Sequence record: KY608965.1 | DNA: 64,000 nt | Direction: 5' to 3' (one strand) | DNA from: Escherichia phage phiEC1 | Shown: positions 2,933 to 63,385 of the stretch, piece after piece | Numbering within the stretch: the stretch's first letter is position 1 | Layout: every line of letters starts with the position of its first letter | Translations under genes and position numbers: made by a program | The notes under the pieces: model-generated | What the model saw: only the letters and a program-made list of their open reading frames with translations | The model's database searches: none | What the model was told of the DNA's origin: nothing

Positions 2933-3805
2933 ATGGCATTTTTTAAGCAAACTCCTAAACAATTAATCGATACCGGCGAAATTGGTAATGCCTCAACAGG
3001 TGATATCTTATTCGACGGTGGTAATAAAATAAATGACGATATCAACGCTATTTACAATGCATTTGGCGATCAACGTAAAATGGCCGTAGCAGATGGAACC
3101 GGACCTACAGGTCAAACTATTCATGCCACAGGTTATTATCAAAAAGGAAAGGCAGCTGATTATCAAACTCCTATTAAACCAGGCACTATGCATGATATTG
3201 ATGCTTCTGATGGTGGTGTGATTGTTATTATTGACCGTCCTGAATTAGGTGACTCTGTAGAATTCATAAACTCTAATGGGTCTATTTCTGTTAACAATCC
3301 TTTAAGTATCCAAGTAACCGATGGTTCGATTAAAGGTGTTCTTAATAATCTTGTTATTTCCACACCTTATACCCATGTTGTTCTTCGTTGTGTTGAAATT
3401 AATGGGCCGACTTCAGTATGGAATTATTCTACTGATAGCATGTTTGGACAGAAAGAATCTCCTGTTGATGGGACTTGGAGTCTTACAGGAAACACAGTTT
3501 CTATTCCTCTGTTTTATCGCACGGATTATAACATGGCTAAATTGCTTGTTACATGTCAATCCGCTGATGGTAGAAAAATAAAAACATGCGAAATAAATAT
3601 TCTAATAGATACAATTAACTCAGAAGTTCTTTCTACCGAATTTGCAGTAATGCGAGTTGGTAATGTAGATGAAACCGACGAGATTGCTAATATTAGCTTT
3701 AGTATTATTAACAACTTTGCTACTATGACGATTACATCCGATATTATTGGATTACGTTCAGCAGTTAAAATTATCTCAACTCAGAAAATTGGGGTCGCTC
3801 AATAA
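2933..3805 (+). CDS. 9: Baseplate wedge / long-tail-fibre attachment protein gp9
   Basis: 290 aa; matches recalled T4 gp9 (…LIDTGEIGNASTGDILFDGGNKIN…); late promoter and terminator just upstream. Confidence 0.93.
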   Translation: MAFFKQTPKQLIDTGEIGNASTGDILFDGGNKINDDINAIYNAFGDQRKMAVADGTGPTGQTIHATGYYQKGKAADYQTPIKPGTMHDIDASDGGVIVIIDRPELGDSVEFINSNGSISVNNPLSIQVTDGSIKGVLNNLVISTPYTHVVLRCVEINGPTSVWNYSTDSMFGQKESPVDGTWSLTGNTVSIPLFYRTDYNMAKLLVTCQSADGRKIKTCEINILIDTINSEVLSTEFAVMRVGNVDETDEIANISFSIINNFATMTITSDIIGLRSAVKIISTQKIGVAQ

Positions 3806-5610
3806 TGAAACAAAATATTAAAATTGGTAACGTCGTTGATGACGGACAAGGCGATTACCTTCGTCGAGGTGGTGAAAAGATAAATGAGAACTTTGACGAA
3901 ATCTATTATGAATTAGGTGATGGTGAAGTTCCTTATGCCGCTGGTGCATGGAAGACTTATGATGCGGCTGATGGTCTTAATCTTAAGGCTGCTTGGGGTA
4001 AATCTTATGCAATTAATACTACTTCTGGGCGAGTTTCGGTAAATCTTCCTAAAGGGACAATTGCAGACTATAATAAAGTTATTCGTGCTCGTGACGTATT
4101 TGCAACTTGGAACATTAACCCTGTTACTTTAATTCCGGCAAACGGAGACACGATTAAAGGTTCTTCATCTCCAGTAGAAATTAACGTTCAGTTCTCTGAT
4201 TTAGAATTAGTTTATTGTGCTCCTGGACGTTGGGAATACATCAAGAACAAACAAATTGATAAAATAGTTAGCTCTGACATTAGTAACGTTGCTCGTAGAG
4301 AATATCTGGTTGAAACCCAAGGTCAGACCGATTTCATGGATGTTTTTAACGGGACCTCTTATAACGTTAACAACATTCGCGTAAAACATCGTGGCAACGA
4401 ATTGTATTATGGTGATGTATTCAGTGATAATAGTGATTTTGGTTCCCCAGGCGCTAATCCTGGTGAACTGGTTGCACTTGATGGATTTAATATTAGATTA
4501 CGCCAACCATGTAATGTTGGGGACACTGTACAAATTGAGACATTCCTAGATGGTGTTTCTCAGTGGCGTAGTTCATATACTCGTCGCCAAGTTCGCATTT
4601 TAGATAGTAAATTGACTGCTAAAAAGTCTATTGATGGAAGTATTTACGTCACTGATTTGAGTACGTTCCGATCTATTCCATTTACAGCATTTGGTATTAA
4701 TCCTACAGAACCACCTAACCCGAATTCGTTAGAAGTTCGCTTCAATGGTATTCTCCAAGAATTAGCTGGTACTGTTGGAACTCCTATTTTCCGTTGTGAA
4801 GGTGTGGATGCTGATTCTGAAGAGTCATGCGCTAATCTCGGTGGGACATGGACTCAATCATATACAGATTATGCGATTGAATATACTGATAATATCCCTA
4901 GCGCAATTCTGTTTGACCGTCAATTTGAAGACCAGGACATTATTACCATCACATGGTTTAATAACGATTTAGGAACTCTTCTTGAAATGGAAGAAATCCT
5001 TGATGTCGCTGATGAGAAATATGTTTCTCAAGGGTCTAACATTGAAATTACCGGTGACGTTGCATTAACCGATTTCGATAAAATTGGATGGCCTAATGTA
5101 GAACCTGTTCCTAAGTACGAACGTGAATTCTCGACTATCTCAGCAATATTTGATACAATTTATCCTGTCGGGACTATTTACGAAAATGCGGTTAACCCTA
5201 ATAATCCGGCCACTTATTTAGGTTTTGGTTCGTGGAAAATTTGGGGACAAGGCAAAGTATTAGCAGGTTGGAATGATGACGCGTCGGATCCTAATTTTGC
5301 ATTAAATAATAATGACCTTGACATCAACGGTAACCCTACTCATACCGCAGGTGGTACTGTTGGTGTAACAACTATCACATTAGAAAATGCCGATTTACCA
5401 GCTACACAAACAGATGAAAAGGTTCTTATTTCTGATGATAATGGTACGGTAATTATAGGCGGTTGCCAATATGACCCAGATGCAGAAGGTCCTATTTACA
5501 CTAAATATCGTGAAGACCATGCAAAGACTAACGGATCTCATGTTCCAGCGCGTTCTATAACTAATATTCAGCCATCTATAACTGTATACCGTTGGGTAAG
5601 GATTGCATAA
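3805..5610 (+). CDS. 10: Baseplate wedge protein gp10
   Basis: 601 aa (T4 gp10 is 602 aa); TAATG overlap with gp9 stop; synteny. Confidence 0.9.
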
Positions 5611-58071: not shown

Positions 58072-58097
58072 ATTATACACTTTTAAACTGAAGCGTT
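58072..58097 (-). promoter_or_regulatory. Candidate middle promoter for nrdA
   Basis: On - strand AACGCTTCA (MotA-box variant) then 11 nt then TATAAT; leader hairpin CGGGATA…TATCCCG at 58046..58064. Confidence 0.5.
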
Positions 58098-58350
58098 AAT
58101 TATCCTCAGCAATAATTTCTTCATATTCTTTAGGAGTCAAGACTGTAATATCGAAATAAACCAGAGGCTCTTTTTCCATACCGAATCCACCACAGAATTC
58201 ACGATATTCATAAATTCGTTCATGTGAATGGCAAATGAATCGTTCACCTTTAACTGTGATTTCACTATTCGGTGAAGGGATATCCAGTTCACTTGGATTT
58301 TTCATTTCAAAAATTGTGGTGCCATATGAATTAATAAAACGTAAAATCAT
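58096..58350 (-). CDS. Hypothetical protein downstream of td
   Basis: ATG at 58350 just after td stop; longer track ORF would overlap td by 62 nt. Confidence 0.45.
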   Translation of the reverse strand: MILRFINSYGTTIFEMKNPSELDIPSPNSEITVKGERFICHSHERIYEYREFCGGFGMEKEPLVYFDITVLTPKEYEEIIAEDN

Positions 58351-58351
58351 T

Positions 58352-59212
58352 TTATACCGCCATTTTAGCTTTGATAGCTGGATGTGATTCGTAATTTTTA
58401 AGAATGAAATCACTCGGATTCATATGCTCTGTTACCCAATGAAGCTGTAATGTCGTGCTCCAATCAGAGAATCCTTCAGGCCAATCAATTTTAAGTTCAC
58501 ACAGTTCTTTAGGCTCACGACGAAGAACTTCTTTGCATTGTTCTACATGATTGCTGTAGATATGCGTGTTGCCGCCTGAGAACACTAAATCACCTGGGAT
58601 AAGATTACACATCTTCGCTACGATATGAGTCAAGGCAGCGTATGAGGCAATATTAAACGGTAGTCCTAAGAATACATCTACTGAACGTTGATACCATTGC
58701 AGGTCAAGATGACCATTACGTACGTTGAACTGATAAAACATATGACATGGAGGAAGAGCCATTTGGTCGATTTCAGCCGGGTTCCATGCAGAAACAATTT
58801 GACGTCTGTCATTAGGAAGAGCTTTAATACGATCGATAGTTTTAACCAATTGGTCCACACCACCGAAATCACGCCATTGTTTACCATATATAGGACCAAG
58901 TTCACCACTATGATAACCAAGGTCTTTTGCCTGATTTTCGTAATTATCGTCCCAAATAGTTTTACCTTCAATAAGGCTACCATGAGTACGAAGACGTAAA
59001 TCATTAACGTTGGTAGAACCAGATATAAACCAAAGTAATTCAGCGATACAAGCTTTCCATGCCAGTTTCTTAGTTGTTACTGCAGGAAATCCTTTAGTCA
59101 GGTCCCAACGCAATTTAGTCCCGAAAAGAGCAATAGTGCCTGTACCTGTACGGTCGTCTGTTTCATAGCCATTTTCTAGGATATCATTAATCAGGTATTG
59201 GTATTGTTTCAT
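58352..59212 (-). CDS. td: Thymidylate synthase, uninterrupted
   Basis: 286 aa as in T4 Td; active-site PCH motif (…ALPPCHMFYQFNV…); ATGA overlap with frd. Confidence 0.95.
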   Translation of the reverse strand: MKQYQYLINDILENGYETDDRTGTGTIALFGTKLRWDLTKGFPAVTTKKLAWKACIAELLWFISGSTNVNDLRLRTHGSLIEGKTIWDDNYENQAKDLGYHSGELGPIYGKQWRDFGGVDQLVKTIDRIKALPNDRRQIVSAWNPAEIDQMALPPCHMFYQFNVRNGHLDLQWYQRSVDVFLGLPFNIASYAALTHIVAKMCNLIPGDLVFSGGNTHIYSNHVEQCKEVLRREPKELCELKIDWPEGFSDWSTTLQLHWVTEHMNPSDFILKNYESHPAIKAKMAV

Positions 59213-59796
59213 TTATACACACTCTCAGTAATTTCGGTGAGTTCATCGATTCTGTAGTAATGAGATTCTACCATAGAACGTTGAAGCATAATATCTTGGA
59301 CGAAATCTTTATCAAGTTGAACATCGGAATTAACACGACATTTCTTAATGATTTTAGTCATCACGATTTCATCGGCATAAGGCAGTGCTTGTTTTAATAA
59401 AGCAGGACCGCCAATAACCGAGACATCAACATGTTCAGTAGAAAGTTTAAACGGTACGTCAGTTGCAGGGCTAAACAGGTTAATTTCGCCACCGGTTACC
59501 AAGGTAATAAATTCAGATTGGGTGATATAGAACCGTGCAAGTTCGTCGCTTTTAGTCCTAGGCAGTTTTCTAGACATATCGGTGACAACTACATGAGTAC
59601 GATCTGGGAGTAGACGAGGTAATGATGCAAAAGTCTTAGCACCCATAACCATTACAGTGTTTTTAGTGCGAGCAACAAAGTTACTCATATCTTGTTTGAT
59701 ATGCTTCCATGGAAGTCCATCACCTAATCCAAAAGCATATTCCAGTTTATCATCAACTGTTTTAGATGGTGCGCATGCGAATACTAATTTAAGCAT
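59209..59796 (-). CDS. frd: Dihydrofolate reductase
   Basis: 195 aa (T4 Frd is 193 aa); synteny upstream of td. Confidence 0.92.
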   Translation of the reverse strand: MLKLVFACAPSKTVDDKLEYAFGLGDGLPWKHIKQDMSNFVARTKNTVMVMGAKTFASLPRLLPDRTHVVVTDMSRKLPRTKSDELARFYITQSEFITLVTGGEINLFSPATDVPFKLSTEHVDVSVIGGPALLKQALPYADEIVMTKIIKKCRVNSDVQLDKDFVQDIMLQRSMVESHYYRIDELTEITESVYK

Positions 59797-59798
59797 TT

Positions 59799-60047
59799 TT
59801 ATTTCCTCAGATTTTTCTTAACAACTTTCCAATCAGCTTTAAACGATTCAACATCAGAGTGGCAAATCCAGAATCCTGCGCTTTCGCCGTCTTCATAAAG
59901 TGGACATCCATCACATTCTTCATTCCAGCCCATTTCACGTAAAGCTGCTTCAGCTTGTTCAAGGAGTTCAGCATCTTTATCAAGGATGTTGAAGTACCAT
60001 TTGCCTTTAACTTCAGAATCGTTAATGCTTTGGCGTTGTAATTTCAT
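59799..60047 (-). CDS. Hypothetical early protein (frd.1 position)
   Basis: 82-aa ORF with ATG; early promoter 60084..60113. Confidence 0.55.
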   Translation of the reverse strand: MKLQRQSINDSEVKGKWYFNILDKDAELLEQAEAALREMGWNEECDGCPLYEDGESAGFWICHSDVESFKADWKVVKKNLRK

Positions 60048-60075
60048 TTTATTCTCCGTTGCTTCATTTGTTTTG

Positions 60076-60106
60076 ACAGGGTAATAGTATCACACCATTA
60101 CCCTGT
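60076..60106. repeat. 10-bp perfect inverted repeat bracketing the -10 of an early promoter
   Basis: ACAGGGTAAT (60076..60085) and ATTACCCTGT (60097..60106) separated by 11 nt containing the -10. Confidence 0.85.
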
Positions 60107-60113
60107 TGTATAC
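60084..60113 (-). promoter_or_regulatory. Early promoter for ORF 59799..60047
   Basis: On - strand GTATAC-N18-(GGTGTGA)TACTAT; -10 bracketed by a 10-bp perfect inverted repeat. Confidence 0.6.
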
Positions 60114-60475
60114 TATTTTATTCCAAAAATTTCTTTAATTTCTGCAATCACATCTCGAGCATTTTCCGTAGTCACTTCAAAGATGAGTGATTGTTTAGAA
60201 ATAGACTCTGGAGATACCTCGATGAAGTGTTTAAACTCATCATCATAAAGCTCAAAATATGAACCTGGCTTACCATCAAAACCGAATTCAGTACCGTCTC
60301 GCATAGTTACACGGGTTACACATTTATCATCATCATAATCTGTGTTCATGTCTTTTACAACAAAACTAGGACCATGAAGCTCAATCAAAGCCAGCATATC
60401 GGCGTTTTGTGGGCATTCATTGGCGAAGATAGCTTTACATTCTGGATTGATGATATAAGTTTTTCCAATTTTCAT
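60113..60475 (-). CDS. Hypothetical early protein, tandem paralogue A
   Basis: 120-aa ORF; clear similarity to the ORF at 60537..60923 (…YIINP…FANEC…HGPSFVV…VTM.DGTE…YFE.Y..EFK.F.EV…). Confidence 0.6.
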   Translation of the reverse strand: MKIGKTYIINPECKAIFANECPQNADMLALIELHGPSFVVKDMNTDYDDDKCVTRVTMRDGTEFGFDGKPGSYFELYDDEFKHFIEVSPESISKQSLIFEVTTENARDVIAEIKEIFGIK

Positions 60476-60507
60476 TTTGATTTCCTCTCATTTGTTTTGA
60501 TAGGATT

Positions 60508-60537
60508 ACTATAACATAGTCCTATCTTTTTGTATAC
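60508..60537 (-). promoter_or_regulatory. Early promoter for ORF 60113..60475
   Basis: On - strand GTATAC-N18-TATAGT; flanked by GATAGGA/TCCTATC inverted repeat. Confidence 0.55.
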
Positions 60538-60923
60538 TACTTTTTAAAAGTTTTTTGCAAAAGTTTGATGATTTCGTCGACGTTGGTTTCATCTACGATA
60601 CAATGGATTTTTGTTACACCTAAAGTTATACCTTCGTTAGTAGATTGAGGCTTTTCTAAAGTTACCTCAGTAAAGTATTTGAATTCTTCAGAGTAAATCT
60701 CAAAATACGTCTCAAGTGGGCCACCAGCCATGTATTCAGTGCCGTCTTCCATAGTTACACGTACCACACAGTCACCAGCACAATCATCACTTTCCATTTC
60801 ATCTACAACAAAACTAGGTCCGTGCTTCTCTATTAAATTTAGCATCATTACATTGCAACGGCACTCGTTAGCAAAGTCATCTTTAAATAAAGGGTTAATG
60901 ATATAAGATTTTCCGATTTCCAT
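60537..60923 (-). CDS. Hypothetical early protein, tandem paralogue B
   Basis: 128-aa ORF; paralogous to 60113..60475; early promoter 60953..60981. Confidence 0.6.
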   Translation of the reverse strand: MEIGKSYIINPLFKDDFANECRCNVMMLNLIEKHGPSFVVDEMESDDCAGDCVVRVTMEDGTEYMAGGPLETYFEIYSEEFKYFTEVTLEKPQSTNEGITLGVTKIHCIVDETNVDEIIKLLQKTFKK

Positions 60924-60952
60924 TTTGATTTCCTCATGTTGTTGATAGGTCT

Positions 60953-60981
60953 ATACTAACACATTCAGGGAAGAAGTAAAC
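60953..60981 (-). promoter_or_regulatory. Early promoter for ORF 60537..60923
   Basis: On - strand GTTTAC-N17-(GAATGTGT)TAGTAT. Confidence 0.6.
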
Positions 60982-61005
60982 AACTTTTTCAGCAATTTAC
61001 AGATA

Positions 61006-61030
61006 CTCAAAAGGGAGACCGAAGTCTCCC
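61006..61030 (-). terminator. Rho-independent terminator after gene 32
   Basis: On - strand GGGAGAC-TTCG-GTCTCCC followed by TTTTGAG. Confidence 0.85.
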
Positions 61031-61036
61031 GATTTA

Positions 61037-61939
61037 TTATAGACCAGCTAACAGGTCATCGAGGTCGCCATCATCAGAGGATGAGGTAGAGCTCATGAAG
61101 TCATCTTCAGTTTTTGCAGAACTAAAGGCTTCCATGTCTTTATCAAAATCGTCAAGGTCAGAAGCAACTTTATCTGCAACAGAAGCTGCTGCGGCTGCTG
61201 CACCACCAAGAGCGGCAGTACCAAGAACCTTAGCGAAAGATTCATTTAATTTTTCAAAGGACTTGAACTGGTCTTTAGCCGTCAAAGTAGTAAGGTCTAC
61301 CATCTGGTCATATAGTTCTTTCTGGAATGCTTCGTCATTAATACGAGGAATTTCAGATTGACCCAAGAATTTAGATTCGTCGTAGTTGCTAAAACCAGAA
61401 ACCTGCTTAGCTTTCAGAACGAAGTTGGCACCTTCAAACGGACAAGTAACATCAACCGGAGTTTCACCCATTTCGGTATCAACTGCAATCATTGCATTGA
61501 TTTTGTCCCAAATCTTTTTACCGAAACGATATTTAAATACTTTACCTTCGTTATCTGGAGCTTGAGGGTCTTTAACAACCAGAATATTAGCCCAATAAGA
61601 AGTTTTACGTTTCAGTTGAGAATATTCAGTTTTGTTGGTATTGTACAGGTCATTTTTACTAATGTACTGACATACAGGACAAGAGTCGTAATCACCATGT
61701 GTAGAAGAGCAATTTTCAATATACCATTTACCATTTTTCTTGAAACCGTGGTTAACAAGAATTGCAAATGGTAGTGCGTCATCAGTTTTTGCTGGCAGGA
61801 AACGAATTACCGCTTGACCATTACCTGATGCATCTAGCTTCAGCTTCCATTCGCCTTTATCTTCTGAAGAGAAACCTTTGTTACCGTTCAGTTTAGCCAT
61901 TTGAGCAGCGAGGTCAGCAGTAGATTTACGTTTAAACAT
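61037..61939 (-). CDS. 32: Single-stranded DNA-binding protein gp32
   Basis: 300 aa; zinc site (…[15 protein letters not shown]…), acidic C-terminus; matches recalled T4 gp32. Confidence 0.97.
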
Positions 61940-62026
61940 TATATTTACCTTTATTTAGATTATTTAATTTATTTACAGTTGGTTGCTACGACACTTATAC
62001 CTCGTAGCTGGTATGATTTATTTATA
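61940..62026 (-). promoter_or_regulatory. Gene 32 late promoter plus leader with autoregulatory translational operator
   Basis: TATAAATA on - strand at 62019..62026; 5' hairpin GCTACGA…TCGTAGC (61985..62008); then AU-rich leader with repeated UAAAUAAA-type elements before the ATG. Confidence 0.7.
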
Positions 62027-62055
62027 AAGTAATTTTAACACACAAGAAATAAAGC

Positions 62056-62709
62056 TTAATACTTACATGATTTGATTGTTTCTATGAACAATTTCTTAGC
62101 AGCATTTCCATCGATTTGAAGTATTTTTCGATATGCCTTTAATTTGGTAGAATAATTTTGCCAGACTAAATTGTCAGTAAGTTCGTCATGCTTATCTATA
62201 ATATTCAAGAATGAATCCAACAACAAGAAGGTTTCAAATGAAATTATATTGCTTTGTAGCAATTTGAATATGTAGCTCGACTGAACGTTGTTATTATAAT
62301 CAAATATCTCTTGAAGCGCACTAACTTCAACTTTCTTACTGAAATAGTAGATGTTACGTACGTCTTCGGCAAATGTCTCTTTAGCTTGTTTGAGACGTCC
62401 AATATATTCCCTATAGAAAACTAATGCATCAGCGTCTGATATCTCACCAATCCATGCGTCTTGGTTAGCAACTAAGTTGCTTATGAATATCAAGGTGAGT
62501 TCCTTCAATTTATATTTCTCTGCTAGTTTTTCAAAGAAATATTTATCTCGGCGTTTTTGATACGCATTATCCGAAACACGCATGCACCAGTTATATTTGA
62601 TTACGTCATACCGACCACCAAAATGGTTTTTGCACATCAAGTATAGTTTATATACCGATTTTCCATTAATATAACGTTCTCCATCAGGAGGCATGCGTAT
62701 TTTAATCAT
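62056..62709 (-). CDS. 59: Helicase loader gp59
   Basis: 217 aa as in T4 gp59; matches recalled T4 sequence (…YKLYLM…YDVIKYNWCMRVSD…). Confidence 0.95.
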   Translation of the reverse strand: MIKIRMPPDGERYINGKSVYKLYLMCKNHFGGRYDVIKYNWCMRVSDNAYQKRRDKYFFEKLAEKYKLKELTLIFISNLVANQDAWIGEISDADALVFYREYIGRLKQAKETFAEDVRNIYYFSKKVEVSALQEIFDYNNNVQSSYIFKLLQSNIISFETFLLLDSFLNIIDKHDELTDNLVWQNYSTKLKAYRKILQIDGNAAKKLFIETIKSCKY

Positions 62710-63385
62710 ATTTCCATCCGGACCATTTTGAAGATTTAAGTCTATATGTAACTAAAGACGCAGAAATATTAAAAACATTTGAAACTTCTTTACACGAGGC
62801 GTATTTTATACCATCAATAATTATAGGTTTTTGTTTTTTAATAGTTCTTTCTTTAGAATGCGACTTTGAATTTGCTATTCTAAGAGCTTCTTTGGTTGAA
62901 TCAGGCATCGGCTTATTCGTTTTTCGCCCTTTTCGGACTTTACTCAAGGCCAATTTGTGAGCTTCAGATAGTTTCTTACCCTTATTAGGTGACGGTATTT
63001 TTCTTTCTAGTCTTGTTTTAGATACTTTAGCCTTAGTCTCTTCAGATCTAGGTTTACCTAATTTAGAAAGTGAAATAGACCTTTTAGCTTCATCACTTTG
63101 TTTTTTACCAGGACCACCTTTACCACCGGGAACTAAGTTATAAGTATCATCTCGCAAAACAAAATCTTCGTTAACCAATTCTGCTTCTTTTTTATAGGCG
63201 TCCTTGTCATTATCATATTCATAAAGAATTTCGGTATAAAAATTTTTTAGTCCATATTTAGCTTTGGCCGCTAATATAGCGCGGCCTGATCCAATATACC
63301 AATCTTTCTCTTTATGTTTTTTGTGTACGCCTATATAAATTTTACCATTTATTTTATTGGTAGTTTTATACACAACGTATTTCAT
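62702..63385 (-). CDS. GIY-YIG homing endonuclease (seg-like), inserted between genes 33 and 59
   Basis: N-terminal GIY-YIG motifs (YVVYKTTNKINGKIYIGVHKK…WYIGSG), NLVPGGKGGPG, Lys-rich C-terminal DNA-binding tail …SCKEVSNVFNISASLVTYRLK…WSGWKY. Confidence 0.85.
   Translation of the reverse strand: MKYVVYKTTNKINGKIYIGVHKKHKEKDWYIGSGRAILAAKAKYGLKNFYTEILYEYDNDKDAYKKEAELVNEDFVLRDDTYNLVPGGKGGPGKKQSDEAKRSISLSKLGKPRSEETKAKVSKTRLERKIPSPNKGKKLSEAHKLALSKVRKGRKTNKPMPDSTKEALRIANSKSHSKERTIKKQKPIIIDGIKYASCKEVSNVFNISASLVTYRLKSSKWSGWKYD

Follow-up and report, generated by a model that had tools for sequence, protein, structure and literature searches.

Gene frd.2 of phage T4, which lies in the order frd-frd.1-frd.2-frd.3-32, is treated as an early gene, and its product has been grouped with GoF and MotB.1 in a family described as having an 'LSm-like fold' (Kim et al. 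2025, PMC12152347). An amber mutant of T4 frd.2 shows normal plating (PMC12152347). When T4 was surveyed by CRISPRi-ART, frd.2 was the only gene of unknown function to be scored 'Fit', the fitness effect of its knock-down being weak with a score of 0.83 (p 0.027) against 3.29 for gene 32 (PMC11879866). GoF and MotB.1 have been shown to dimerise; the wild-type proteins do not stabilise a reporter RNA, whereas GoF(D25Y), the active mutant, which loses an Asp, does stabilise a reporter mRNA, and an RNA-chaperone hypothesis has been raised for the GoF/MotB.1/Frd.2 family (PMC12152347). Work on T4-type phages has also described the promoter-early stem-loops, or PeSL (Arbiol 2010, PMC2839356; Comeau 2014, PMC4122927), cassettes whose T4/PST early promoter has the consensus TTTACW N17 TAYWAT and which mediate insertions and deletions (indels) in the hyperplastic regions of these genomes (PMC4122927). 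Here we describe a tandem pair of genes of the frd.2 family, copy A and copy B, in a stretch of 64,000 nucleotides from Escherichia phage phiEC1 (sequence record KY608965.1), the whole of which is referred to below as the window. The DNA is 100% identical over the A/B region to Escherichia phage Mizar (PV714129), and Mizar is the name under which this locus enters the comparisons between phages; the nearest relatives, LH01, mobillu and FP43, are classified as Mosigvirus, Tevenvirinae.

A sequence-only reading of the window had described two clearly similar open reading frames between gene 32 and frd. Both are present where it had placed them, on the minus strand, and their position relative to gene 32 and to frd.1/frd is correct (Table 1). 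The similarity is borne out by BLASTP, which aligned residues 1-90 of the two proteins without gaps (52/90 identities, 58%, E 3e-33), and every shared motif block that had been listed falls inside this alignment. Global identity is 47-50% with an 8-codon linker indel. The C-terminal 30-38 residues were left unaligned by BLASTP, and in the family alignment A and B have a common strand-helix C-terminal tail. Scores against the Pfam family FRD2 (PF03197; gathering cut-off 29 bits) were 114.6 bits (3.5e-33) for B and 76.9 bits (2e-21) for A, and since both matches reach the end of the model the C-terminal parts too are homologous. Both proteins match phrog_622; a search of NCBIfam gave no matches. 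A and B are members of the T4 frd.2 family. Copy B is 94% identical to mobillu frd.2, 77% to RB69 Frd.2 and 43% to T4 Frd.2, with identities of 90-94% to other Mosigvirus frd.2 genes. At the DNA level the two units form direct repeats that are in register; identity is 72-79% in the coding parts, spaced 448 nt apart, and 71% in the downstream cassettes, spaced 424 nt apart. Each ATG is preceded at 7-8 nt by a Shine-Dalgarno (SD) sequence, GAGG or GGAG (for B, GAGG at 7 nt). A third FRD2-like reading frame was sought in the window and none was found besides A and B. The family is small, since only 32 clusters at E <= 1e-3 were obtained when 1.84 billion representative proteins were searched with a profile; with A alone as the query, a word-indexed search recovered just 5 proteins. 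The tandem arrangement is no artefact of assembly: the same A and B pair is present in phages that were sequenced independently, namely Mizar, LH01, the LF82 series and CAU_ECP01. FP43 has the pair with a different B allele, and an IMG/VR contig (L016) has the same layout with a near-identical A.

Comparison of these loci suggests that A and B are two old, diverged frd.2 lineages stacked side by side, an explanation which, taken as a whole from origin to product, we hold with a probability of about 70%. That B is the resident frd.2 ortholog and A a separate 424-bp cassette, which most relatives lack, was shown by alignment of Mizar with the single-copy phage mobillu. The two are collinear, with 93-100% identity on both sides of one clean gap covering 60535-60115, and this gap is exactly the 424-bp A cassette of leader, gene and downstream promoter/hairpin element; it coincides with the interval between the two D3 direct repeats. 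Proteins at least 90% identical to A were found in 21 phage records only, all of which also have a B-type gene, and genes at least 60% identical to B in approximately 216 records. The order of the two genes is not fixed, being 32-B-A in Mizar, FP43 and LH01 and 32-A-B-frd.1 in ESh15, ATK47/ATK48 and phage 55. In the latter group A keeps the same leader of about 29 nt, and B starts 25-29 nt after A with no promoter between them. A-like alleles also occur alone. A protein 69% identical to A and with the same tail (P0003) is the sole frd.2 product of contig L012, encoded between gene 32 and frd.1, and in Tequatrovirus T4_ev151 and phage ZCEC15 an A-like barrel (70%) is fused to a T4-type tail. 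The intergenic elements divide in a corresponding way, the one after A being like the frd.2-to-frd.1 element of T4 and the one after B like that of single-copy Mosigvirus. Finally, the number of synonymous substitutions per site (dS) between A and B is 1.27 over the barrel and 1.49 overall, which is near saturation, with a nonsynonymous value (dN) of 0.33-0.42 and dN/dS of 0.26-0.28. Taken together, the dS, the cassette gap, the swapped order, the lone A-like alleles and the affinities of the elements argue for stacking of alleles by out-of-register recombination, which would have taken place between phages with different frd.2 alleles and for which the repeated promoter/stem-loop/leader cassettes may have provided the sites. 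Events of this sort have been described for PeSL cassettes in T4-type hyperplastic regions (PMC4122927), and as a cassette polymorphism of such a region the pair is in itself ordinary. Of the description of the locus as a duplicated gene, the two paralogs stand, while a recent duplication in situ does not, because the copies are old and resemble stacked alleles; the word 'duplication' is in this sense misleading. In the ATK47 record (KT184309) the A-type gene (1501-1863) and frd.1 (approximately 2345-2600) are unannotated, so that copy counts based on annotation would miss ATK47 as a two-copy phage.

The sequence-only reading had named a pseudogene among the two copies as grounds for its refutation, and neither copy has the appearance of one. 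Each has an intact frame, and in the A orthologs of ESh15, ATK47 and phage 55 most of the differences fall at synonymous positions (dN/dS 0.10-0.12), so that the possibility of one copy being a pseudogene was rejected. A is under purifying selection, and on the evidence of their sequences both copies appear to be intact, functional genes.

The two parts of the protein have had different histories. Between Mizar and FP43, gene 32 is 94-100% identical and A and frd.1 are 100% identical; the difference is an island of approximately 300 nt (70-76% identity, dS ~2) lying exactly over the barrel of B. Between the Frd.2 proteins of T4 and T4_ev151, the barrel has 47% nucleotide identity and the tail 100%. 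These two contrasts indicate that the barrel is swapped as a unit, and the N-terminal barrel is an exchanged, hypervariable module; the earlier suggestion of a diversifying host-interaction function fits such a recombining N-terminal domain. Two classes of tail were distinguished. Even where the barrels have only about 30% identity, the class I tail (GVTKIHCIVDExNVDEIIxLLxKTFK) hardly varies. For this tail Mizar B and T4 differ at a proportion of synonymous sites (pS) of 0.735, with dN 0.07 and dN/dS 0.024, which shows that the constraint is on the protein; the idea that it is a DNA-level element such as a promoter was rejected, since synonymous sites are saturated. The class II tail of A (..FEV..N...VIAEIK..FG) is common to P0003, to the third FRD2 gene of phage A7_1 (described below) and to the second paralog of Gaprivervirus-like phages. 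In the sample examined, every class II tail is joined to an 'HGxxF' barrel, class I tails are found with both barrel types, and every two-copy locus has one tail of each class.

Multi-copy FRD2 loci are common. The family profile retrieved 11 loci from IMG/VR, and five of these are two-copy, in either order. Gaprivervirus EAWsc9 has two FRD2 genes with frd.3 in between (3213-3644 and 4226-4567 of the retrieved piece); its second paralog contains an exact internal tandem repeat of 23 residues (EVDGDAPVDTQTIHVQVNHKNAA, twice), and a gene annotated as a PemK/MazF-family toxin adjoins frd in this phage. Three tandem FRD2 genes, encoding proteins of 124, 119 and 125 residues and separated by 10-11 nt, are found in the Vequintavirinae phage A7_1 (OP795442, 40583-41716), the third being 47% identical to A with the same tail type. 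This triple locus shows that the family reaches beyond the Tevenvirinae and the T4-like phages. In IMG/VR locus L026 the first FRD2 copy (2284-2646) has an aberrant N-terminus (MSSIHIVLNLSLILVH...) and a normal T4-type C-terminal half; a frameshift, a pseudogene or a sequencing error are all possible explanations.

A generic sigma-70 scan of the window was not enriched, with 12 sites for an expectation of 10.7, and did not pick up the promoter before B; the window was therefore rescanned with the T4/PST early consensus TTTACW N16-18 TAYWAT, scored out of 12. Ten perfect (12/12) matches were found on the minus strand and none on the plus strand, with 0.65 expected from shuffles, and the early motif class is therefore both real and strand-specific. 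The sequence-only reading had given each copy its own early promoter. This is upheld for B, whose site scores 11/12, and T4 has a 12/12 site in the same position after its own gene 32 terminator. It is weak for A, whose site scores 10/12, a level at which 113 sites were found against 117 in shuffles and which is therefore that of chance. This site is homologous to the frd.2-to-frd.1 element of single-copy relatives. The label 'early' is reasonable by homology, T4 frd.2 being early (PMC12152347) and the strand being that which carries all ten perfect matches. The gene 32 terminator is also the upstream stem-loop of the cassette before B and is kept in ATK47, ESh15, phage 55 and mobillu. Both genes would be read early from the strong promoter just past this terminator, and any additional initiation ahead of A is probably weak. 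The hairpins after A and B have no U tract, making read-through from the strong promoter likely. On the plus strand, where TTTTT comes after it, the hairpin at 60499-60526 is scored as an intrinsic terminator and might stop antisense transcription into the early genes. A search of Rfam over 59000-62500 gave only matches at the level of chance (E > 0.3).

AlphaFold2 models were obtained with a mean per-residue confidence (pLDDT) of 89.1 for A and 85.5 for B. In both copies the predicted strands (E) and helices (H) are E6-9, H11-20, H22-34, E37-45, E51-58, E63-65, H78-83 and E84-87, in the order strand, two helices, three strands, helix, strand, linker and C-terminal helix, and the N-terminal fold is predicted to be a bent antiparallel five-stranded barrel that matches the published picture. 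A Foldseek search against viral models gave 51 matches at E <= 1e-3, the named ones all being phage proteins and including GoF. For B the match to GoF of phage VR7 in BFVD had E 8e-6, and the weak profile match to phrog_13003 (GoF) E 0.004. Against the PDB, Foldseek with the model of B gave no match at E 1e-3 or better, and a sequence search with the family profile gave a best E of 0.11, to an unrelated acetyltransferase. The best fold neighbours are protein-binding SH3/Tudor/FeoA barrels. All 89 family members analysed are acidic, with isoelectric points (pI) of 4.05-6.09 (median 4.46) and net charges of -2 to -23 (median -12).

With somewhat lower confidence, the products of A and B can be pictured as small, very acidic cytoplasmic proteins in which the SH3/FeoA-like N-terminal barrel, as modelled, would form a variable and exchangeable recognition module. 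The most likely partner of this barrel is a protein, of the host or of the phage, and not RNA. B and T4 Frd.2 would have one type of the short strand-helix tail (class I) and A the other (class II), and the conservation of the tail may suggest that it serves oligomerisation or a conserved partner. The two types could then hold the paralogs functionally apart, in which case a phage with both might cover two specificities.

A more specific proposal, which we regard as possible if somewhat unlikely, is that A and B are counter-defence proteins whose two specificities widen the range of defended hosts that can be overcome. The genes are early accessory genes of a hyperplastic region, the hypervariable barrel is swapped between near-identical genomes, copy number and order vary, the proteins are small and acidic, and under laboratory conditions the amber mutant of T4 frd.2 has normal plating (PMC12152347), all of which would be in keeping with such proteins. 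There is no homology to a characterised anti-defence protein in Pfam, PHROGs, NCBIfam or the PDB, dN/dS is below 1 throughout and the data indicate no target. In an ordinary laboratory host, moreover, the knock-down of T4 frd.2 was slightly costly to fitness, and this suggests that its role is general and not specific to defence. A related idea, which is speculative and in our view unlikely, is that FRD2 proteins are modular early effectors, the acidic barrel of about 90 residues acting as an exchangeable specificity cassette of about 300 bp against variable host or defence factors and the two tail classes defining two non-interacting lines. If this were true, stacking one gene of each tail class (or three genes, as in A7_1) would broaden the hosts that can be exploited, and frd.2 would be a counter-defence or host-range locus comparable to the T4 internal-protein locus.

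That A and B are LSm/Hfq-like RNA chaperones altering the stability or translation of phage or host mRNA appears quite improbable. The predicted bent barrel of five strands and the structural relationship of B to GoF are in keeping with this idea, as is the reporter stabilisation by GoF(D25Y). The uniform acidity of the family weighs against the published proposal, and the wild-type GoF and MotB.1 were without effect in the RNA reporter assay (PMC12152347). This acidity, together with the inactivity of the wild-type proteins, the loss of an Asp in the active GoF mutant and the protein-binding nature of the fold neighbours, makes protein binding by the barrel likelier than Hfq-like RNA binding.

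As to the origin of the pair, it is very unlikely that frd.2 was recently duplicated in tandem at this site and that positive selection then drove the copies rapidly apart. The two units are in register, with leader and downstream cassette included, and a tree of the barrels places the A clade and the Mosigvirus B clades as sisters, apart from the T4 type, as such an event would predict. It would not predict the near-saturated dS (1.3-1.5) or a dN/dS that is well short of exceeding 1, nor is it easily reconciled with A-type alleles standing alone in other phages, with the reversed order in ESh15, ATK47 and phage 55, with a T4-like cassette after A and a Mosigvirus-like one after B, or with an A that is 100% identical across phages whose B barrels differ by 26%. 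The idea that A and B are metal-binding or iron-related proteins with Cys ligands, which was suggested by the C..C and CAGDC motifs and by the FeoA-like fold, is extremely unlikely and the metal-binding hint is unsupported, because the 15 invariant columns among 43 family members include no Cys and the Cys positions differ between A (13/21/52), B (21/23/48/52/108) and T4 Frd.2 (57/82/108), although the four Cys of the B clade could form a lineage-specific metal site.

Several observations weigh against the stacking of two old lineages as set out above. The recombination mechanism is one that we infer from its end products, and the flanking repeats are only 71% identical. The leader CTATCAAAACAAATGAG was considered as a genome-wide mobile cassette and this was rejected, as it has two sites in the window, both at this locus. 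The stem-loops before A and before frd.1 lie within the promoter-like site, extending from between the -35 to past the -10, and in this they differ from PeSL cassettes. Covariation in the hairpin after B was not above that in shuffles (151/500; five sequences), with 98% of cells paired and one AU/GU/GC compensatory pair. The rule that pairs a class I with a class II tail is drawn from two independent lineages and their variants, and the part given to the tail in oligomerisation or insulation is purely conjectural.

Table 1. Positions in the window of copies A and B, the neighbouring genes and the intergenic elements of the locus
Feature	Position	Strand	Details
Copy A	60113-60475	-	120 residues; second frd.2 lineage; 'HGPSF'-type barrel and short class II tail LIFEVTTENARDVIAEIKEIFGIK
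Copy B	60537-60923	-	128 residues; frd.2 ortholog of single-copy Mosigvirus; 'HGPSF'-type barrel and class I tail GVTKIHCIVDETNVDEIIKLLQKTFKK
Direct repeat D3, first copy	60064-60119		56 nt; 71% identical to 60488-60543, 424-nt spacing
Direct repeat D3, second copy	60488-60543		with the first copy, brackets the A cassette
Gene 32 intrinsic terminator	61013-61030	-	GGGAGAC-UUCG-GUCUCCC then UUUU; terminator scan and RNA fold
Promoter-like site before B	60953-60980	-	TTTACT 60980-60975, N16, TAGTAT 60958-60953; 11/12; ~30 nt past the gene 32 terminator
B-to-A intergenic cassette	60476-60536	-	promoter-like site, hairpin, leader CTATCAAAACAAATGAG, SD
Promoter-like site before A	60508-60536	-	TATACA 60536-60531, N17, TATAGT 60513-60508, upstream TG; 10/12
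Hairpin after B	60499-60526	-	free energy (dG) -10.4 kcal/mol, z -2.5
A-to-frd.1 intergenic cassette	60048-60112	-	promoter-like site, 14-bp hairpin, leader CTGTCAAAACAAATGAA, SD; alignment with T4 and T4_ev151
Promoter-like site before frd.1	60084-60112	-	TATACA 60112-60107, N17, TACTAT 60089-60084; 11/12
Hairpin after A	60076-60106	-	14 bp; dG -19.1 kcal/mol, z -3.95
Gene 32	61037-61939	-	upstream neighbour of B
frd.1 (DUF5417)	59799-60047	-	Pfam PF17438, 7.7e-34; downstream boundary of the variable segment
frd	59209-59796	-	downstream of frd.1

The minus-strand order around the pair is nrdA, a DUF5496 open reading frame, td, frd, frd.1, A, B, gene 32, gene 59, a GIY-YIG endonuclease gene and gene 33. 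The DUF5496 frame (58096-58350, minus strand), in the gap between nrdA and td, also matches phrog_2458, and the Mizar record gives for it a BLASTp match to the T4 10.1-kDa nrdA-td intergenic protein y14B. The GIY-YIG homing-endonuclease-like gene (62702-63385, minus strand) lies between gene 59 and gene 33 and contains an I-TevI DNA-binding domain (1e-11) and a SegE-type GIY-YIG domain (1.5e-4); unlike this gene, the endonuclease SegG of T4 sits between 32 and 59. A second indel hot spot was observed at approximately 59797, in the gap between frd.1 and frd and a few hundred bases from the A/B indel. Here 331-432 additional bases, with 1-2 small open reading frames, are present in relatives (LH01 590-1029; FP43 2180-2518) and absent from Mizar. 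The gap between frd.2 and frd.1 contains, in T4, T4_ev151, ESh15 and a Logan contig, a hydrophobic open reading frame of 22 codons with its own SD (T4 version MFAPYIMAAVMLVCLYLLIKAC), which lies at approximately 1010-1080 on the minus strand of the T4 NC_000866 piece, 2345-2413 of the ESh15 piece and 2735-2803 of contig L012. It is without annotation in the T4 reference record and is missing from Mizar and the window.

A and B are a real and correctly located pair of paralogs from a known but functionally unexplained family. Gene frd.2 is among the most conserved genes of T4-like phages that are still without a function, and the present analysis does not reveal one. It does provide experimental handles, in the form of natural one-, two- and three-copy variants, of near-isogenic pairs that differ in the B barrel only (Mizar/FP43) or in the presence of A only (Mizar/mobillu), and of a tail type that is constrained at the protein level. 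The locus is also a clean case of cassette stacking in a T4-type hyperplastic region.

Among known systems the closest is T4 Frd.2 itself (NP_049852), which belongs to the same family and shares with A and B its size, its two-part architecture, its position between gene 32 and frd.1 and its early strand, and whose almost invariant tail, GVTKIHCIVDExNVDEIIxLLxKTFKK, is carried by B. T4 differs in having one copy, preceded by frd.3, where Mizar has two copies and no frd.3; over the barrel B is only about 35% identical to the T4 protein, and the tail of A is different and shorter. T4 GoF and MotB.1 resemble A and B in their predicted bent five-stranded barrel with two inserted helices, in being small early proteins of T4-like phages and in occurring as several paralogs per genome. 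They have no ordinary sequence similarity to A or B, however, their genes lie elsewhere in the genome, and the one functional result, RNA stabilisation, was obtained with a point mutant of GoF and not with Frd.2. The FeoA and SH3-like barrels (6e55, 7r7b, the IdeR/DtxR C-terminal domain and CarD/Tudor) show a likeness of fold only, with identity of no more than 13%, and A and B have neither a Pfam match to FeoA (PF04023) nor a feoB context. At the level of the DNA the comparison is with PeSL cassettes. Here too there are short intergenic units of stem-loop, T4-type early promoter or promoter-like site, SD and start codon, with the SD and start codon at the 3' end of each cassette. They recur between the small accessory genes of hyperplastic regions and adjoin insertions, deletions and gene displacements, as seen in the 424-bp indel against mobillu, which is bounded by 56-nt repeats, and in the A/B order swap of ESh15, ATK47 and phage 55. 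Only the cassette before B has its stem-loop upstream of the promoter, as in the published layout, and the -35 of the sites before A and before frd.1 is TATACA.

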